Source of the DNA: Candidatus Aenigmatarchaeota archaeon
GTDB lineage: Archaea > Aenigmatarchaeota > Aenigmatarchaeia > GW2011-AR5
Reading direction: 5' to 3'
DNA: 64,000 nucleotides
NCBI GenBank assembly: GCA_018304605.1
Contig: JAGVVU010000034.1
Coordinates: forward strand, 3,555 to 67,554
Notes under the pieces: model-generated
Databases searched by the model: none
Seen by the model: the letters and a program-made list of their open reading frames with translations, nothing else
Told to the model about the DNA's origin: nothing
Shown: positions 347-59,417 of the stretch, piece by piece
Position numbering within the stretch: the first letter of the stretch is position 1
Layout: every line of letters begins with the position of its first letter
Program-made: the position numbers and the translations under genes

Positions 347-976
347 CTAAACTTTGAGCTTTCTGACCCATCTCTTCGATACGTCAGCAAACGCTTCTTT
401 CGCACCAAGACCGAATGCGAGCGCGAATCCAAGGCCGACCGAGGCTATGATTACCAGCAAGATGTTATTCACCAGACTTGCTGATATTCCCAGTATAGGC
501 AACGCAAGCGCGATTGAAACGTACAAGACAAAGAAGAACAGTGTCTTGCCGACCAATACTGCGTACAGGCTGTTTGCCTTCCTCAGGTGGCTCTTGATGT
601 ATTCTGCCAGCACGTAGCCCACAACCATGATGACTGCGGCTCCGATGATCCTTGGTATGAAGGCGTTTATATCGGCGATCCACAAGGACAGCGCCGTGAT
701 GCCAAGGACTTCCCTGGACAATGCGGCGGTTATGAATCCGAGATATATCCACCACTTTGCTATAACAGAAAACAGGTTTGAAACGCTGATTGCAGGCTTG
801 TGTGTTTCCGTTATGTAGTAGTCCAGCTTGACTCTTTCGAGAACTTCCTTGACAACCCTTCCGACAACCTTTCCGACTACCAGGCCTATGACCAAAAGTA
901 TCACGGCAGCCACGAGGTTTGGAAGGAACGTCACTGTATTCGTGGTTAGTTCGCCCAAGATGTCGACTAACACCAT
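347..976 (-). CDS. Multi-pass membrane protein (conserved TM-helix repeat type)
   Basis: ORF 347-1015. The internal ATG at 974-976 is preceded by GGAGGAG (RC of actcctcc at 983-990). Hydrophobic helices throughout. Confidence 0.55.
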   Translation of the reverse strand: MVLVDILGELTTNTVTFLPNLVAAVILLVIGLVVGKVVGRVVKEVLERVKLDYYITETHKPAISVSNLFSVIAKWWIYLGFITAALSREVLGITALSLWIADINAFIPRIIGAAVIMVVGYVLAEYIKSHLRKANSLYAVLVGKTLFFFVLYVSIALALPILGISASLVNNILLVIIASVGLGFALAFGLGAKEAFADVSKRWVRKLKV

Positions 977-1152
977 TTTTTTACTCCTCCATATAGAATT
1001 CCGCGGCTTGTGCAAACGTGATTCCCGCGTAATTCTCCTTTGTATAAATGGCTAAACCCCGTTAATAAAGATTTTGCTAGAGGAAAAGCATGAAAAATCA
1101 CGGGAAAATCACATCTTCTTGTGTTGGAAGGTGTGATCACAATTTGGAAAAG

Positions 1153-1350
1153 AAAAAAGCGCCGGCGGCAGGATTTTCATCCGTGGTAGCATTAGCGGAG
1201 CCACCTAAGGTTGGTAAGACCTTAGGAAGGATATCCTTCCTCGGTTTTGAACCTGCATGTGCGTCCTCAACAGACGTGCGAAGCACGCCATTCGCAAAGG
1301 CACTCTAGCTCTCAAGGCTAGCGCATTTACCAAGCTCTGCCACGCCGGCA
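1153..1350 (-). ncRNA. Candidate structured ncRNA of about 195 nt, identity unknown
   Basis: On the minus strand the 5' GCCGGCG pairs with the 3' CGCCGGC, extended by GCAG/CTGC. Internal perfect hairpins include GGAAGGATATCCTTCC, CCTAAGG-N9-CCTTAGG, CGTGC-TTC-GCACG and GGATGAAAATCC. There is TTTTTT at the 3' end. A TATA-like TTTTTAAT (plus-strand coordinates 1378-1387) lies about 28 nt upstream of the 5' end. Confidence 0.4.
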
Positions 1351-1430
1351 TTTATTATCAACTCTACATCTCTAAGGATTAAAAATAGCCGCATGACTAA
1401 TCATATAAAAATGAAAACAAAAAGAAAAAT

Positions 1431-1799
1431 TTATTTCTTCTTCACGAGAAATGAGCCGATTACACCGCCGATGAGCCCAAGAACCAGGCCTGCGATTGCC
1501 GCAGCAACCACGGCTACAGCTCCAAGCGCTGCGCCGAATCCGCCAAGTCCGAGTGCCCCGCCGACTGCCGCGAAAAGCACGCCGAGTATTATTCCCTCAA
1601 CGAGCCCTCCGATAAGGCCTGCCAAAAGACCCACTACGAGTCCATCCGTCACGCTCTTGACTTTGGCAAACCATGCAGCTACCAATCCTCCGATTATCCC
1701 GCCAACGAACCCCAAGACGGGGTGCGCCAGGGAAAGGACGATGGTAAGGACGATGAAAGCCACGGCTCCCACCAAAACTGCTTTCCAACTTATAGCCAT
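1431..1799 (-). CDS. Small Gly/Ala-rich (glycine-zipper) membrane protein
   Basis: 122 aa with GxxxG repeats and transmembrane segments. The antisense ORF 1393-1827 is low-complexity Pro/Ala/Thr and is judged the spurious partner. Confidence 0.5.
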   Translation of the reverse strand: MAISWKAVLVGAVAFIVLTIVLSLAHPVLGFVGGIIGGLVAAWFAKVKSVTDGLVVGLLAGLIGGLVEGIILGVLFAAVGGALGLGGFGAALGAVAVVAAAIAGLVLGLIGGVIGSFLVKKK

Positions 1800-2042
1800 A
1801 ATTCTAATTGTTTCGGCGGGCTTTTAAAGCATGGAAGCGCCGACGGCAGGAATTTCTCCAAGGAAGAATAGCTCTTCTGTGGCTTTGAACCTGCAAGTCC
1901 TAGGGACACCAGTTTTCGAGATTCGCCTCACAATTAAGTGATCTGGCGCAATGCCAAGTTTCATGGCGCACAAAATTTGCACGCCTTTATGCGACGTCGG
2001 CTCTTTTTAATACGTTACAGCAGTAACCTTTAAAGTGGTTTT

Positions 2043-8333: not shown

Positions 8334-9106
8334 CTAATCATCTTCTTGACCCCTTTTTCTGTGATGACCGCCGTGATGTATTTCCATGGTGTCAGGTCAA
8401 AAGCCGGGTTGAAAATCCTCGCGCCTTTCAGGTTTGCGTGCAGCTCAGAAGCCGGGCGCTGCTCCATCACTATCTTTGGCCTTTTGTCAACCGTGAAAGA
8501 AGACGTTATGACGTAAAACGGCTTCCTGTTCTCTTTCGCGACAACGGCCAACGGATGCGTTCCGACCTTGTTGATGAGGCCCTCATTCCTGAGCGCGTCA
8601 GCGCCTACCACGACCATGTCGGCATTGCCTATGAAATCGCTGATCGCAGAGTCGATTATGTAAGAAACTTTGACCTTATTCTTCAGGAGCTCTTTTGCGG
8701 TGATGAGGCCCTGATCCCTCGGCCTGGTCTCGGTGACTATGACTTCCTTTATTTTGGATTTGTTTTTTACGAGAGCTGCGACGACAAAGCTCGAGTGGCA
8801 ATGGGTCAGGACAACCGAGCGCTTGAATATTCTCGAGGCATTTCCAGCGGCTGCGGTCTTGGACGCTTCGAGCTCTTTGATGACTTTGTTGATGCCTTCC
8901 TGCGACCTGGATTTTTTCACCTTTTCTATCGCATTGAAGAGATCAACCGCCGTCGGCCTCGCTTCGAGCAGCTTTTTACACTCCGTGTCGAACTTTTTGC
9001 CGAATCCGTATTTCCTAGAAAATCCGGATAAGTGTTTCAGGGATTCGACCGTAATGTTCGTCGCGCCCTGTATCTGAATTTTCTTCAGGCGTGATACGAA
9101 ATCCAT
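8330..9106 (-). CDS. Ribose-1,5-bisphosphate isomerase (eIF-2B alpha/beta/delta-like)
   Basis: The C-terminal 258 aa of ORF 8330-9811 (from MDFVSRLKK...) has the eIF2B-like fold motifs GADALRNEGLINKVGTHPLAVVAKE. The upstream part of the ORF looks non-coding and overlaps the real gene 9191-9793 on the other strand. Confidence 0.75.
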   Translation of the reverse strand: MDFVSRLKKIQIQGATNITVESLKHLSGFSRKYGFGKKFDTECKKLLEARPTAVDLFNAIEKVKKSRSQEGINKVIKELEASKTAAAGNASRIFKRSVVLTHCHSSFVVAALVKNKSKIKEVIVTETRPRDQGLITAKELLKNKVKVSYIIDSAISDFIGNADMVVVGADALRNEGLINKVGTHPLAVVAKENRKPFYVITSSFTVDKRPKIVMEQRPASELHANLKGARIFNPAFDLTPWKYITAVITEKGVKKMIR

Positions 9107-14668: not shown

Positions 14669-14844
14669 CGTCCCCGGCGCGATTCGAACGCGCGACCCCC
14701 TGCTTTCCCGGACGACGCATTCGAAGAATGCGTCAGTCTATCTCTCAGATATGATGTCATCATCACACAACCCGCCGGCTGTGCTCTGTTCACCTCCATA
14801 CCTGATAGGAGGCAGGTGCTCTATCCAAGCTGAGCTACGAGGAC
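14669..14844 (-). tRNA. tRNA-Arg(CCU) with an intron of about 100 nt in the anticodon loop region
   Basis: Acceptor GTCCTCG/CGGGGAC. D arm GCTC-AGCTTGGATA-GAGC. Anticodon stem CCTGC/GCAGG with loop CTCCTA+A. T arm GCGCG-TTCGAAT-CGCGC. The intron contains the perfect hairpin GACGCATTCTTCGAATGCGTC. Confidence 0.7.
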
Positions 14845-36748: not shown

Positions 36749-36897
36749 TGGGCTCGGGCGGATTCGAACCGCCGACCTTTGCCGTATCTTCAACCAATCC
36801 TTTGCGTTCTTTCCGTTAACGCTTTCTTTAAAGAAGGGGTTAGTGAAGGCAACGTCATCTCGTGCCTGATTTTCAGGTACCACTAGACTACAAGCCC
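36749..36897 (-). tRNA. tRNA gene with about 76 nt of intronic insertion (D-loop hairpin insertion CCTGAAAATCAGG plus a further insertion), isotype unresolved
   Basis: Acceptor GGGCTTG/CGAGCCC with discriminator A. D arm GTCT-AGTGGTA. T arm GGCGG-TTCGAAT-CCGCC. Variable loop AGGTC. Followed by TTTT. Confidence 0.55.
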
Positions 36898-39670: not shown

Positions 39671-39806
39671 GGGCCGGTAGCTTAGCTTGGTAGAGCATCT
39701 GTCTTATATGACGTGCTTTGATAATAAACAAAATCAAAGCATTTGGCGTGACATCGTCATTGTCTAAGCCAGCAGAAGGTCATGAGTTCAAATCTCATTC
39801 GGCCCA
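39671..39806 (+). tRNA. tRNA with anticodon UAU (Ile, AUA-reading) if spliced at the canonical 37/38 site; intron of about 63 nt
   Basis: Acceptor GGGCCGG/TCGGCCC with discriminator A. D arm GCTT-AGCTTGGTA-GAGC. Anticodon stem TCTGT/GCAGA with loop CTTATA|intron|A. T arm ATGAG-TTCAAAT-CTCAT. The intron has an 8-bp hairpin GCTTTGAT/ATCAAAGC. Confidence 0.6.
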
Positions 39807-56784: not shown

Positions 56785-56899
56785 GCCCTGGTAGCTCAGC
56801 AGGTAAGAAGCTAGGCTTCTCTATAAAGAGCGCTTGAGATTTTAGGAATCGGCGAAGCTGTTAACCAAGAGGTCCGCGGTTCGAGCCCGCGCCGGGGCG
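56785..56899 (+). tRNA. tRNA-Asn(GUU) with two short non-canonical introns (about 22 nt in the D-loop, about 20 nt at position 30/31)
   Basis: 73-nt mature tRNA plus 42 nt. Acceptor GCCCTGG/CCGGGGC. D arm GCTC-AGCAGGTA-[AGAAGCTAGGCTTCTCTATAAA]-GAGC. Anticodon stem CTTG[intron]G/CCAAG with loop CTGTTAA. Variable loop AGGTC. T arm CGCGG-TTCGAGC-CCGCG. Confidence 0.6.
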
Positions 56900-57042
56900 C
56901 AAGGTAGCTCAGCTCGGGAGAGCACATAGTGTGAGGAAAACCTCATATTAGCTTAAACGGCTGAAGTTTAGGCAGGAACCGTACTGTAAAACACTGGTTT
57001 TATAGGTTTAAGCTGTCGAGGGTTCAAATCCCTCTCTTCCCA
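56900..57042 (+). tRNA. tRNA-like gene with about 70 nt of insertions; acceptor pairing and anticodon unresolved
   Basis: Canonical D arm GCTC-AGCTCGGGA-GAGC. Stem CTTAA/TTAAG flanked by a 9-bp helix AGCTTAAAC/GTTTAAGCT. Variable loop CTGTC. T arm GAGGG-TTCAAAT-CCCTC. The 5' CGCAAGG does not pair cleanly with the 3' TCTTCCC. Confidence 0.4.
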
Positions 57043-57757
57043 CTGCAATTTCAACTTTCCTTATATGTTTAGGATTATGAAATCCAATTTTTCCCATCCA
57101 GTTCTTTGCGTTTTTTCTTCCATTGATATAAATTCTACTTCCTTTAGAAGAGAAACCTCGATTGTCATTAACGATGGTGTCATATTCTGTATACATTGAG
57201 AACCCCATTTCTTTTAGAATTAATTCTAATTGTTCAACAAGTTTACGACTCTTCTGTTTTACTGAAATTACAGGATAATTATGTCCTTGTTTTTTTAATG
57301 ACACGGAACCATCAGTGTCGAAAAGTCCTCGAATGAATGGAATTATGAATTTTTTATTTTTGAGAATAAATTTGGGTATTTCTATGTTATCTTTTGGTCC
57401 AATATTGAATCCTATATCTTTTAGGAAATAAAATAATCCTTTTGATCTTGTTATAATTCGGATTGTATTTTGACCCTTCAGCTTTACGGGTTTTAATTTT
57501 ATATTGAATACCCTGAAAATTAAAGGCACTATAAAATTATCTATATACTCTTTGTCGTCAGTAAAGGAGCACGTTATAGAAATAGAGTATTCTGATGCCG
57601 TGCCGCCTTTAAACCGGTATTTGTTAATGCTTCCGTCACCTGTCATAATGCCTAAAAATTCTGCAAGTTCTTCAGATAAAACTACAGGCAATTGTAGACC
57701 TTTTCTTTTATCTCCGTAAGTAATGATTGATTTCATGTGATCACTTATGGACTTCAA
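57008..57757 (-). CDS. LAGLIDADG-family (double-motif) homing-endonuclease-like protein
   Basis: LAEFLGIMTGDGSI and IPFIRGLFDTDGSV. The C-terminal 12 codons are antisense to the T-arm of the tRNA-like gene. Confidence 0.7.
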   Translation of the reverse strand: MKSISDHMKSIITYGDKRKGLQLPVVLSEELAEFLGIMTGDGSINKYRFKGGTASEYSISITCSFTDDKEYIDNFIVPLIFRVFNIKLKPVKLKGQNTIRIITRSKGLFYFLKDIGFNIGPKDNIEIPKFILKNKKFIIPFIRGLFDTDGSVSLKKQGHNYPVISVKQKSRKLVEQLELILKEMGFSMYTEYDTIVNDNRGFSSKGSRIYINGRKNAKNWMGKIGFHNPKHIRKVEIAVGREGFEPSTA

Positions 57758-58635: not shown

Positions 58636-58793
58636 AGTTGGCTGGCTTTTTAAAGTTAAGTTAAAAACAGATAAAAGAAGTGGACAAAGGGCACCAGACT
58701 GTCGACTAGGCGCTGAAAGCGTCATGTTTGTTTGATGCTCGTCTGACTTACATAATTCAAAATGGTTCAGATCAGTCGACTTCTGTGATTTTT

Positions 58794-59417
58794 ATGCCAA
58801 AAAAACACAAGCAAAATCAAGACCAAAAAATAGAACAATCAGAGGACTTCGAGAGGAGGGAATATGTCGAGCCTGAGCCAGTAAAAGTCGTAGTTGACAC
58901 GCTCCTTGCAGAAGACAAGGTAATCGCTGTCGAGAATCGTGAGCATATCTATGAACCGGGCTATTACGGCAAGGATCTTGGCGAGAGGCTCGAGCTGGCT
59001 TTGGTCGAAGCGGTCCTGCTGCTCAAGCGCGGCAGGATAAAGGTGTCCTCCCTGGGAAAACAGCTGTCATTCAAGGAACTTTACGACCATGCATGCTCCA
59101 TGGACAAGAGATTCCCTCATAAATACAGGGTATATGAAGACCTGCGTGAGAGAGGGCTGCTGGTAAGGACGGGCTTCAAATTCGGCTGCGATTTTCGCGT
59201 ATATGAAAGAGGGGTACAACTGAAGAAAGGGCCAAAATCGGCAAAGGAACACACGAAATGGATAGTCTTCTCGGTGCCAGAGGACTTCACTATGTCTTTC
59301 GCCGAGCTTTCGAGAAGTGTAAGGTTGGCGCACAACATACGTGCCCGCATGCTCTGGGCTGTTGTTGACAACGAGGCTGATGTGACTTTTTATCAGATCA
59401 CTCGCCACAAACCGTAG
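58794..59417 (+). CDS. endA: tRNA-splicing endonuclease (EndA) catalytic subunit
   Basis: YRVYEDLRERGLLVRTGFKFGCDFRVYE and KEHTKWIVFSVPED...LAHNIRARMLWAVVD catalytic-domain motifs. Start set at the internal Met (MPKKHK). Confidence 0.75.
   Translation: MPKKHKQNQDQKIEQSEDFERREYVEPEPVKVVVDTLLAEDKVIAVENREHIYEPGYYGKDLGERLELALVEAVLLLKRGRIKVSSLGKQLSFKELYDHACSMDKRFPHKYRVYEDLRERGLLVRTGFKFGCDFRVYERGVQLKKGPKSAKEHTKWIVFSVPEDFTMSFAELSRSVRLAHNIRARMLWAVVDNEADVTFYQITRHKP

Follow-up and report, generated by a model that had tools for sequence, protein, structure and literature searches.

A putative three-exon tRNA-Ser(UGA) gene with two bulge-helix-bulge introns in an Aenigmatarchaeota contig

The 64,000-nucleotide stretch of DNA analyzed here (the window) comes from a contig of Candidatus Aenigmatarchaeota archaeon (JAGVVU010000034.1, positions 3,555 to 67,554, forward strand) and has a G+C content of 46.5%. 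Near its beginning, on the minus strand, lies a structured element that an earlier note on this DNA described as an independently transcribed non-coding RNA (ncRNA) of about 195 nt and considered not to be a tRNA. Based on comparisons with related sequences, we find that this locus is very probably a functional tRNA-Ser(UGA) gene, with three exons and two introns of the protein-spliced, bulge-helix-bulge (BHB) type (Table 1). The exclusion of a tRNA does not hold: when the two predicted introns are removed, the remaining sequence is a tRNA-Ser(UGA) identical to the product of the syntenic gene in a sister species.

For the locus check, positions 900-1700 of the window were read on the minus strand, and both strands of 1100-1450 were scanned against Rfam with permissive settings (E up to 10). 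The earlier note regarded the size of the element as compatible with a minimal RNase P RNA, a reduced signal recognition particle (SRP) RNA or a multi-hairpin H/ACA RNA. The scan matched neither RNase P nor SRP, and H/ACA families only at noise level; the sole credible match was tRNA (25.8 bits, E = 0.0025). In the alignment to the Rfam tRNA model, posterior probability is high over positions 1-46, which comprise the 5' strand of the acceptor, the D arm and the anticodon arm, and the 3' half is forced into a wrong alignment. The D arm, previously thought to be wrong, is that of a normal class II tRNA (GCA(G)-AGCUUGGUAA-(A)UGC, with G18 and G19 present). The T-loop reported as missing is there too, in a T arm split by a 72-nt insertion (GCAGG-UUCAAA/.../U-CCUGC, slashes marking the borders of the insertion). 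Between the anticodon stem and the T stem there are 48 nt in the genomic sequence, a distance exceeding that of even a class II tRNA.

When both introns are removed in silico, a class II cloverleaf of 86 nt remains, for which ARAGORN gives tRNA-Ser(tga) (the input was 87 nt, i.e., the tRNA plus one trailing C). The acceptor stem of this cloverleaf has 7 bp (GCCGGCG/CGCCGGC), AGCUUGGUAA forms the D loop, CUUGAGA, with U33 and a purine at 37, the 7-nt anticodon loop, and UUCAAAU, in agreement with UUCRANY, the T loop. The anticodon and T stems have 5 bp each, and the spliced variable region, A-GUGCC-UUU-GGCAC-AU, consists of a 5-bp stem and a 3-nt loop. A long variable arm and a G73 discriminator are the identity elements of serine tRNAs; the discriminator G73 is common to all 38 relatives that we solved (see below). 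The genomic sequence continues with CUUUUUU after G73, so that CCA is not encoded. ARAGORN returned nothing, or spurious tRNA-Gln and tRNA-Met calls, when given the unspliced sequence (with and without its intron options, and with lowered thresholds), and removal of only one of the introns led to no call or to a wrong tRNA-Val.

The introns were delimited with a BHB scan in which a 4-bp helix lies between two 3-nt bulges and cleavage falls after the second bulge nucleotide. One intron occupies the loop of the variable arm and the other the T loop. The junction of the latter is ambiguous within a run of A residues, where all positions from 56/57 to 59/60 give one and the same product, and it is the BHB geometry that picks 59/60. 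In a constrained fold, this intron forms three hairpins closed by CCG/CGG. Forcing the whole precursor into the cloverleaf together with both BHB motifs gives -73.5 kcal/mol, as compared to a minimum free energy (MFE) of -78.8 kcal/mol, and thus costs 5.3 kcal/mol.

Orthologues of the locus were collected by way of its neighbors and its anticodon arm. A flanking protein of 122 amino acids occurs on 18 metagenome contigs from groundwater-type samples (ENA, JGI), and the intergenic region is identical in all of these contigs that are long enough to contain it, except for one single-nucleotide polymorphism (SNP) in two of them. Contigs of the same species derive from ENA ERZ28564302, ERZ4903055 and ERZ27254752, and from JGI 3300025323 and 3300025317. 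In the genome collection, the best matches to the adjacent TtuA-like protein were from DPANN metagenome-assembled genomes (MAGs) of the Aenigmatarchaeota and other groups, with identities of at most 50%, and the search with this protein revealed synteny in two loci, L001 and L002 (L numbers denote related loci). L001 and L002 have the 20-mer of the anticodon arm, GCGCTAGCCTTGAGAGCTAG, beside the TtuA-like gene, and the same 20-mer is conserved in 40 metagenome contigs with tRNA-Ser(UGA) genes; 38 distinct tRNA-Ser(UGA) genes were solved from the contigs that carry it. In many of the 38, the T loop is a plain one of 7 nt and the variable region measures 13-17 nt, and the intron-less relatives with the same anticodon arm that were scanned score 53-60 bits with the Rfam tRNA model.

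The most informative of these loci is L118, a syntenic orthologue from a sister species on a 399-kb contig (amino acid identities of 87% for TtuA and 75% for the mechanosensitive (MS)-channel protein, with the same gene order). The mature tRNA of L118, whose gene scores 41 bits with the Rfam tRNA model, is identical to the predicted product at 86 of 86 positions, while identity drops to 75% and 60% in the 80-nt flanks. The variable arm of L118 (AGTGCCTTTGGCACAT) is uninterrupted, and it corresponds exactly, and uniquely, to the predicted junction of exon 1 and exon 2. In its T loop, L118 has an insertion of 31 nt, unrelated in sequence and located elsewhere in the loop, at 53/54 or 54/55. With identical exons, diverged flanks and non-homologous introns, the comparison suggests purifying selection on the spliced product, which argues against a pseudogene as well as against a function of the full-length fold. 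An uninterrupted variable arm is also present in L093 (GTGCC-TTC-GGCAC), and the T loop is uninterrupted in L002, L099 and L128. A further locus of 980 nt (L088) has an upstream flank identical to that of the window, followed by a tRNA body and downstream sequence identical to L118; it may be a recombinant or an assembly chimera joined within the shared 55-nt exon 1. L088 had been considered as an intron-less allele of the same species, but was set aside as a possible assembly chimera, and L118 was used instead.

The sites of both introns show covariation. At the T-loop site, insertions of 11-87 nt are present in thirteen related genes, one of them a tRNA-Ser(CGA) gene. The formal count included 12 genes and 24 nt of motif (the register of L112 was shifted by one); the central helix is 93.8% paired in these genes. 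With the intron, tRNA position 57 forms a G-C pair in 6 of them and an A-U pair in 3, and it is unpaired in the remaining 3. None of 500 shuffles reached the covariation score of the T-loop site, and all slid controls were far lower. At the variable-arm site, an intron occupies one and the same position in the window, L001, L002, L099 and L128, with central helices (CCUU/GAGG, CCUC/GAGG, CUUC/GAAG and CUUC/GGAG) that are fully paired (4/4) in all five genes. Given the small sample and the relatedness of the sequences, the covariation is supportive and has no formal probability attached to it.

Several observations weigh against a functional, spliced tRNA-Ser(UGA). The unspliced gene scores below the gathering threshold of the Rfam tRNA family RF00005 (25.8 vs. 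29 bits), which is explained by the interruption of its 3' half (104 nt of insertions); at that threshold, the whole-window Rfam scan missed the gene. Both BHB motifs are mildly relaxed, as the inner helix of intron 2 is displaced by one A and the inner helix next to the bulge of intron 1 has only 2 bp. ARAGORN is a permissive judge of the borders: in a deletion control, 11,258 of 13,200 nearby double deletions were still called as tRNA-Ser(tga), the content of the variable arm being tolerated, and the borders of intron 1 are therefore fixed by the BHB geometry and by L118 rather than by ARAGORN. A generic solver that combines BHB motifs with ARAGORN also produced ‘tRNA-Ala’ sets of introns with similar BHB scores. 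Because of these alternatives at the locus the solver was dropped as stand-alone evidence, and since motif plus cloverleaf is not unique, the assignment rests on the comparison with orthologues. In two loci of the same species (L085 and L086), the equivalent of position 1306 is changed from G to T at tRNA position 43 (GCTAG to GCTAT), turning the C27-G43 pair into a C-U mismatch; the same SNP removes a stop codon, and gene callers consequently report a spurious ORF of 85 amino acids there. We also infer transcription, cleavage and ligation of the precursor from the DNA alone. Lastly, splicing endonucleases (EndA) of the alpha4 type are classically strict, and the EndA encoded in the window is most like this strict type, a broad specificity conferred by its basic loop being putative.

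Some of these points (the score under the Rfam threshold, the slightly relaxed motifs and the strain variant that breaks the 27-43 pair) would also fit a decaying tRNA-Ser(UGA) pseudogene with two unspliced insertions, its function being supplied by a second copy that could exist elsewhere in the genome. We regard such decay as improbable, given that all 86 exon positions are kept with respect to L118 while the flanks have diverged to 60-75%, that both insertions sit in proper BHB motifs with central helices that covary across lineages, and that a cognate EndA gene is present. In addition, every one of the seven tRNA genes in the window is interrupted (see below), so interruption is the norm in this DNA and no sign of decay.

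The features from which a stand-alone ncRNA was originally proposed are largely real. The terminal helix GCCGGCG...CGCCGGC and the perfect internal hairpins (CUAGC/GCUAG, CGUGC-UUC-GCACG, AGGAAGG-AUAU-CCUUCCU, CUAAGG...CCUUAG and GGAU-GAAA-AUCC) are present at the positions given for them, as are the TATA-like box, the T6 run directly after the 3' end, and the two flanking genes, for a membrane protein with an MS_channel_1st_1 domain and a Gly-rich DUF5518 protein. However, GCAG...CTGC, which seemed to extend the terminal helix, is the 5' strand of the D stem lying beside the 3' strand of the T stem, and does not belong to the functional fold. The fold of the locus is stronger than expected by chance: 1349..1159 (191 nt) has an MFE of -78.8 kcal/mol, compared to -62.7 ± 4.2 kcal/mol in 200 dinucleotide shuffles, none of which was as good (z = -3.8). 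An equivalent of the TATA-like box, ATTTTAAT, is located at the same distance upstream of the tRNA in L118, and A/T-rich boxes at about -35 to -27 occur in many orthologues. The locus is thus a stand-alone gene for a structured ncRNA of about 190-200 nt, with putative promoter and terminator functions, and this part of the original proposal is retained, while the class proposed for the RNA is not.

The strong fold, the promoter- and terminator-like signals and the small ribonucleoprotein (sRNP) machinery of the organism, as revealed by its genes for Nop56/58 and fibrillarin, would be compatible with an RNA of one of the other classes (minimal RNase P, reduced SRP or multi-hairpin H/ACA) acting as a full-length molecule of about 195 nt. 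The Rfam scan, on the other hand, matched neither RNase P nor SRP, with HgcG as the only further match (7.4 bits, E = 8), and conservation between species is confined to exactly the tRNA exons. Conservation and covariation in relatives, which the earlier note had suggested as a check, are indeed found, in the tRNA exons and the BHB helices, respectively. They do not extend to the multi-stem structure, which is not conserved as a unit, because its hairpin-rich insertions are absent from the sister species or replaced there by unrelated sequence. The comparison of orthologues effectively refutes a full-length ncRNA, which we would consider extremely improbable.

Two further readings concern what else the locus could encode. 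An ORF of 72 codons with an ATG start lies on the plus strand (1090-1308), and we agree with its previous description as poor. It has no Pfam match and is antisense to the conserved tRNA, the differing introns of the sister species break its frame there, and gene callers report nothing on the plus strand of nine independent contigs from the same species. The ORF is almost certainly spurious. It is somewhat easier to imagine, though still unlikely, that the tRNA gene is functional and that its 72-nt intron, once excised, serves in addition as a stable, possibly circular, small RNA with a function of its own. C/D-box guide RNAs occur in some archaeal tRNA introns, e.g., the euryarchaeal tRNA-Trp intron, and the intron of the tRNA-Arg gene in the window (14669-14844) bears C- and D-box-like motifs. 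Intron 2 is long for a non-canonical intron, and on its own forms three hairpins in a compact fold (-25.0 kcal/mol). Against a second role, neither intron 1 nor intron 2 contains a C box (RUGAUGA) or a D box (CUGA) on reading of the sequence, and short-query BLAST searches of the rest of the window and about 130 related loci gave only chance-level matches to either intron. The unrelated 31-nt intron of the sister species also indicates that the sequence of intron 2 is not conserved.

Table 1. Positions of the predicted tRNA-Ser(UGA) gene, its signals and flanking genes, and of other features in the window. In the BHB motifs, slashes within brackets mark predicted cleavage sites; H, pairs in the central helix.
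Feature	Position	Strand	Description
TATA-like box TTTTTAAT	1378..1385	-	-36..-29 from the mature 5' end (first helix base); sequence reading; putative archaeal promoter
Precursor of tRNA-Ser(UGA)	1160..1349	-	G1 to discriminator G73, 190 nt, CCA not encoded; from Rfam alignment of the 5' half, ARAGORN on the spliced product, and orthologues
Exon 1 (predicted)	1295..1349	-	55 nt: acceptor 5' strand, D arm, anticodon arm CUAGC-CUUGAGA-GCUAG, variable-arm 5' half and loop
Intron 1 (predicted)	1263..1294	-	32 nt, variable-arm loop; internal hairpin CGUGC-UUC-GCACG; BHB GUG-CCUU-[UG/C]...GAGG-[AC/G]-CAC; H 4/4, outer helix 3 bp
Exon 2 (predicted)	1246..1262	-	17 nt: variable-arm 3' strand, 5' T-stem strand GCAGG, T-loop 54-59 (UUCAAA)
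Intron 2 (predicted)	1174..1245	-	72 nt, T-loop 59/60; BHB GCAGG-UUCA-[AA/A]...UGAA-[AA/U]-CCUGC; H 4/4, outer helix 5 bp
Exon 3 (predicted)	1160..1173	-	14 nt: U60, 3' T-stem strand CCUGC, acceptor 3' strand CGCCGGC, discriminator G73 (1160)
Oligo-T tract TTTTTT C TTTT	1148..1158	-	One base past the discriminator; T6 run at 1153-1158; putative archaeal terminator
MS_channel_1st_1 membrane protein gene	347-1015	-	Flanking gene
Gly-rich DUF5518 protein gene	1431-1799	-	Flanking gene
tRNA-Ser(CGA) gene (predicted)	1838-2001	-	Introns: D loop 1959-1986 (28 nt), anticodon stem 30/31 1922-1942 (21 nt), T-loop 59/60 1852-1883 (32 nt)
tRNA-Arg(CCU) gene	14669-14844	-	101-nt intron at the canonical position 37/38
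Probable tRNA-Val(CAC) gene	36749-36897	-	D-loop intron of ~20 nt, anticodon-loop intron of ~57 nt; borders tentative
tRNA-Ile(UAU) gene	39671-39806	+	63-nt intron at 37/38; canonical BHB CUUA-[UA/U]...UAAG-[CC/A]-GCAGA
tRNA-Asn(GUU) gene	56785-56899	+	Two predicted introns: D loop (22 nt), 30/31 (20 nt)
tRNA-Pro(UGG) gene			Interrupted
tRNA-splicing endonuclease EndA gene	58794..59417	+	207 aa as called on strain contigs; ORF from upstream TTG 58728-59417

For a functional tRNA-Ser(UGA) gene, the signals and motifs suggest the following maturation pathway. The TATA-like box would direct transcription to start a few nt upstream of G1 and transcription would stop in the T-run, giving a precursor of about 200 nt. 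In the variable arm the exon sequence CCUU would pair with GAGG of the intron, and in the T arm U54-A57 would pair with UGAA of the intron; both pairings are evident at the sequence level and supported by covariation, and each central helix is flanked by 3-nt bulges. By analogy with the established archaeal pathway, EndA would cut after the second nucleotide of every one of the four bulges (PMC4090602, PMC3239211), and the exons would then be joined by an RtcB-type ligase. The ends would be trimmed by RNase P and a 3' nuclease, and CCA would be added by the CCA-adding enzyme. The resulting 86-nt product is expected to be serylated by seryl-tRNA synthetase, via its long variable arm and G73, and to read UCA (and UCG) codons.

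The EndA encoded in the window has both Pfam domains above their cut-offs (tRNA_int_endo_N, E = 1.4e-14; tRNA_int_endo, E = 6.2e-26), and its closest relative of solved structure is the alpha4 EndA of M. jannaschii (1A79, E = 2.5e-33), to which it aligns end to end. Before the catalytic His there is a Lys-rich insertion of 6 residues, KKGPKS (QLKKGPKSAKEH), which aligns without gaps with KKGKRS (IPKKGKRSEREH) of the N. equitans alpha subunit. Hirata et al. (2012) defined an NEQ-specific loop at residues 90-98 of the latter enzyme, with K93, K94, K96, R97 and the catalytic His (PMC3488258). Kaneta et al. (2018) named this loop L3, and described alpha4-type EndAs that bear it in DPANN archaea with more tRNA gene disruption and incomplete tRNA predictions (PMC5829648). 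From the alignment, we infer that the insertion in the window's EndA is functionally equivalent to the N. equitans loop and L3. About 1 kb from the EndA gene, on the minus strand (57008-57757), an ORF of 249 amino acids encodes a free-standing protein with a LAGLIDADG_3 domain.

Interrupted genes account for all of the tRNA genes in the window (7/7), with about 12 introns, or roughly 1.7 per gene, in what is a small sample that includes one tentative gene. Scans of the whole window detected few of them, Rfam finding two of the seven at threshold and ARAGORN one. The intron-bearing tRNA genes that these tools do detect point to an archaeal source of the DNA. The tRNA-Ser(CGA) gene was traced from the second Rfam match in L118, and three more genes were found by a heuristic scan for acceptor stems and T arms. 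Although the whole-window Rfam and ARAGORN scans miss the tRNA-Ser(CGA) gene, its spliced product is called as tRNA-Ser(cga); the counterpart in L118 (6812-6922) has the 30/31 intron only. The tRNA-Asn(GUU) gene is likewise missed by both programs in its genomic form, and splices to a 73-nt product with a clean cloverleaf. Manual splicing of 36749-36897 resulted in an ARAGORN call of tRNA-Val(cac); the second intron of this gene does not have a clean 3-4-3 BHB (its 3' bulge would be 5 nt), and the borders are uncertain by 1-2 nt. The tRNA-Arg(CCU) gene, also missed by the whole-window scans, scores 43.6 bits when scanned locally. Its intron, in which a C-box-like motif (GTGATGA) and two D-box-like ones (CTGA) occur, may encode a C/D-box guide RNA, with Rfam matches to C/D families being at noise level. 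The tRNA-Ile(UAU) is an uncommon isoacceptor that is also known from ARMAN-2 (PMC3239211). For comparison, tRNAscan-SE 2.0 reported 0.84 introns per gene in Thermoproteales, and 71 introns in 46 genes of Pyrobaculum calidifontis (PMC8450103); with seven genes only, the intron density of the window is at or above the Thermoproteales level (PMC8450103).

The related loci contain several further arrangements of tRNA-Ser genes and introns. At about 8500-9250 of L001 (minus strand), a tRNA-Ser(CGA) and a tRNA-Ser(UGA) gene are arranged in tandem, and the three long introns of this pair (Ser-CGA T loop, Ser-UGA D region and Ser-UGA T loop) are 76-88% identical to each other over their first 50 nt (shuffle maximum, 68%). 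L109 and L114 have near-identical tRNA-Ser(UGA) genes and upstream flanks, with a 48-nt T-loop intron in L114 alone, which looks like a recent intron gain or loss. In L002, an isolated 3' fragment that looks like a tRNA-Ser gene end (..CCGCCGGCGC and then Ts) is located at about 9030-9050 on the minus strand, directly after a small protein gene and approximately 140 nt upstream of the intact tRNA-Ser(UGA) gene; this fragment may have been left behind by integration at a tRNA gene.

The proper annotation of the locus is thus tRNA-Ser(UGA), probably an essential decoder of UCA, rather than a novel ncRNA. With whole-window scans finding two of seven genes, tRNA complements, and with them completeness and codon-usage inferences, would be underestimated for DPANN MAGs, as Kaneta et al. 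(2018) anticipated (PMC5829648). The co-occurrence of a disrupted tRNA set with a single-unit EndA that has a basic loop makes the proposed link between this loop and a broad substrate range testable on natural substrates. The sister-species comparison further shows that intron content changed recently while the exons stayed identical. As a bolder and rather doubtful extension, this DPANN lineage could be experiencing active and recent gain, loss and movement of BHB introns, which would behave like mobile elements and be tolerated through the Nanoarchaeum-like loop of EndA, and the long T-loop intron might persist as a stable circular RNA. This reading draws on the different introns around an identical mature tRNA in the sister species, on the 7/7 interrupted genes and on the three similar introns of L001. 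If so, the clade would be a natural system for studying the spread of protein-spliced introns.

Disrupted tRNA genes of this kind are already known in archaea, and what is mildly unusual about the present one is the DPANN host with an alpha-type EndA, the intron in the variable-arm loop, and the length of the T-loop intron. The listed positions of non-canonical tRNA introns include both 45/46 and 59/60 (PMC4090602). Multi-intron tRNA genes with non-canonical BHB introns have been described from Thermoproteales, Thaumarchaeota and Korarchaeum (Marck & Grosjean 2003; Sugahara et al. 2007/2008; reviewed in PMC4090602 and PMC4033280). The window gene resembles them in having more than one intron outside 37/38, 3-4-3 or slightly relaxed BHB motifs, and an intron content that varies among close species. 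It differs from them in its host, an uncultured groundwater DPANN-type archaeon and not a member of the TACK group, and in the predicted position of intron 1 inside the long extra-arm loop of a class II tRNA, a specific site that we did not find described in the archaeal tRNA-intron literature compared. The predicted T-loop intron is also long for a non-canonical intron (72 nt, with three hairpins). The BHB models of tRNAscan-SE 2.0, which searches iteratively for non-canonical introns, were trained on Crenarchaeota/Euryarchaeota and Thaumarchaeota (PMC8450103).

Within the DPANN archaea, the nearest parallel is the pre-tRNA-Cys of ARMAN-2, whose 59/60 intron is cleaved in vitro (PMC3239211). 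The two genes share a DPANN host and a T-loop intron at 59/60, with in vitro cleavage by the cognate EndA demonstrated for ARMAN-2, and L118 appears to use the neighboring site 53/54 (or 54/55). The intron of the window gene is much longer than that of ARMAN-2, and the enzymes differ: ARMAN-2 has a three-unit epsilon2 EndA with an ASL loop, while the EndA of the window is a single-unit, alpha-type enzyme of 207 amino acids with a Nanoarchaeum-type loop. In the latter respect the window resembles the DPANN archaea with L3-bearing alpha4-type EndAs (PMC5829648), as it combines disruption of 7/7 tRNA genes with a Lys-rich insertion where N. equitans has its loop; the insertion is equated with L3 through alignment to the N. 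equitans alpha subunit and not through structure. Finally, the 76-88% identity of introns at three sites of two tRNA-Ser genes in L001 recalls the intron transposition of Thermoproteales (Fujishima et al. 2010, as summarized in PMC4090602). The two introns of the window's own tRNA-Ser(UGA) gene have no detectable relatives, so the likeness to Thermoproteales lies with the tandem tRNA-Ser genes of L001 and not with this gene.

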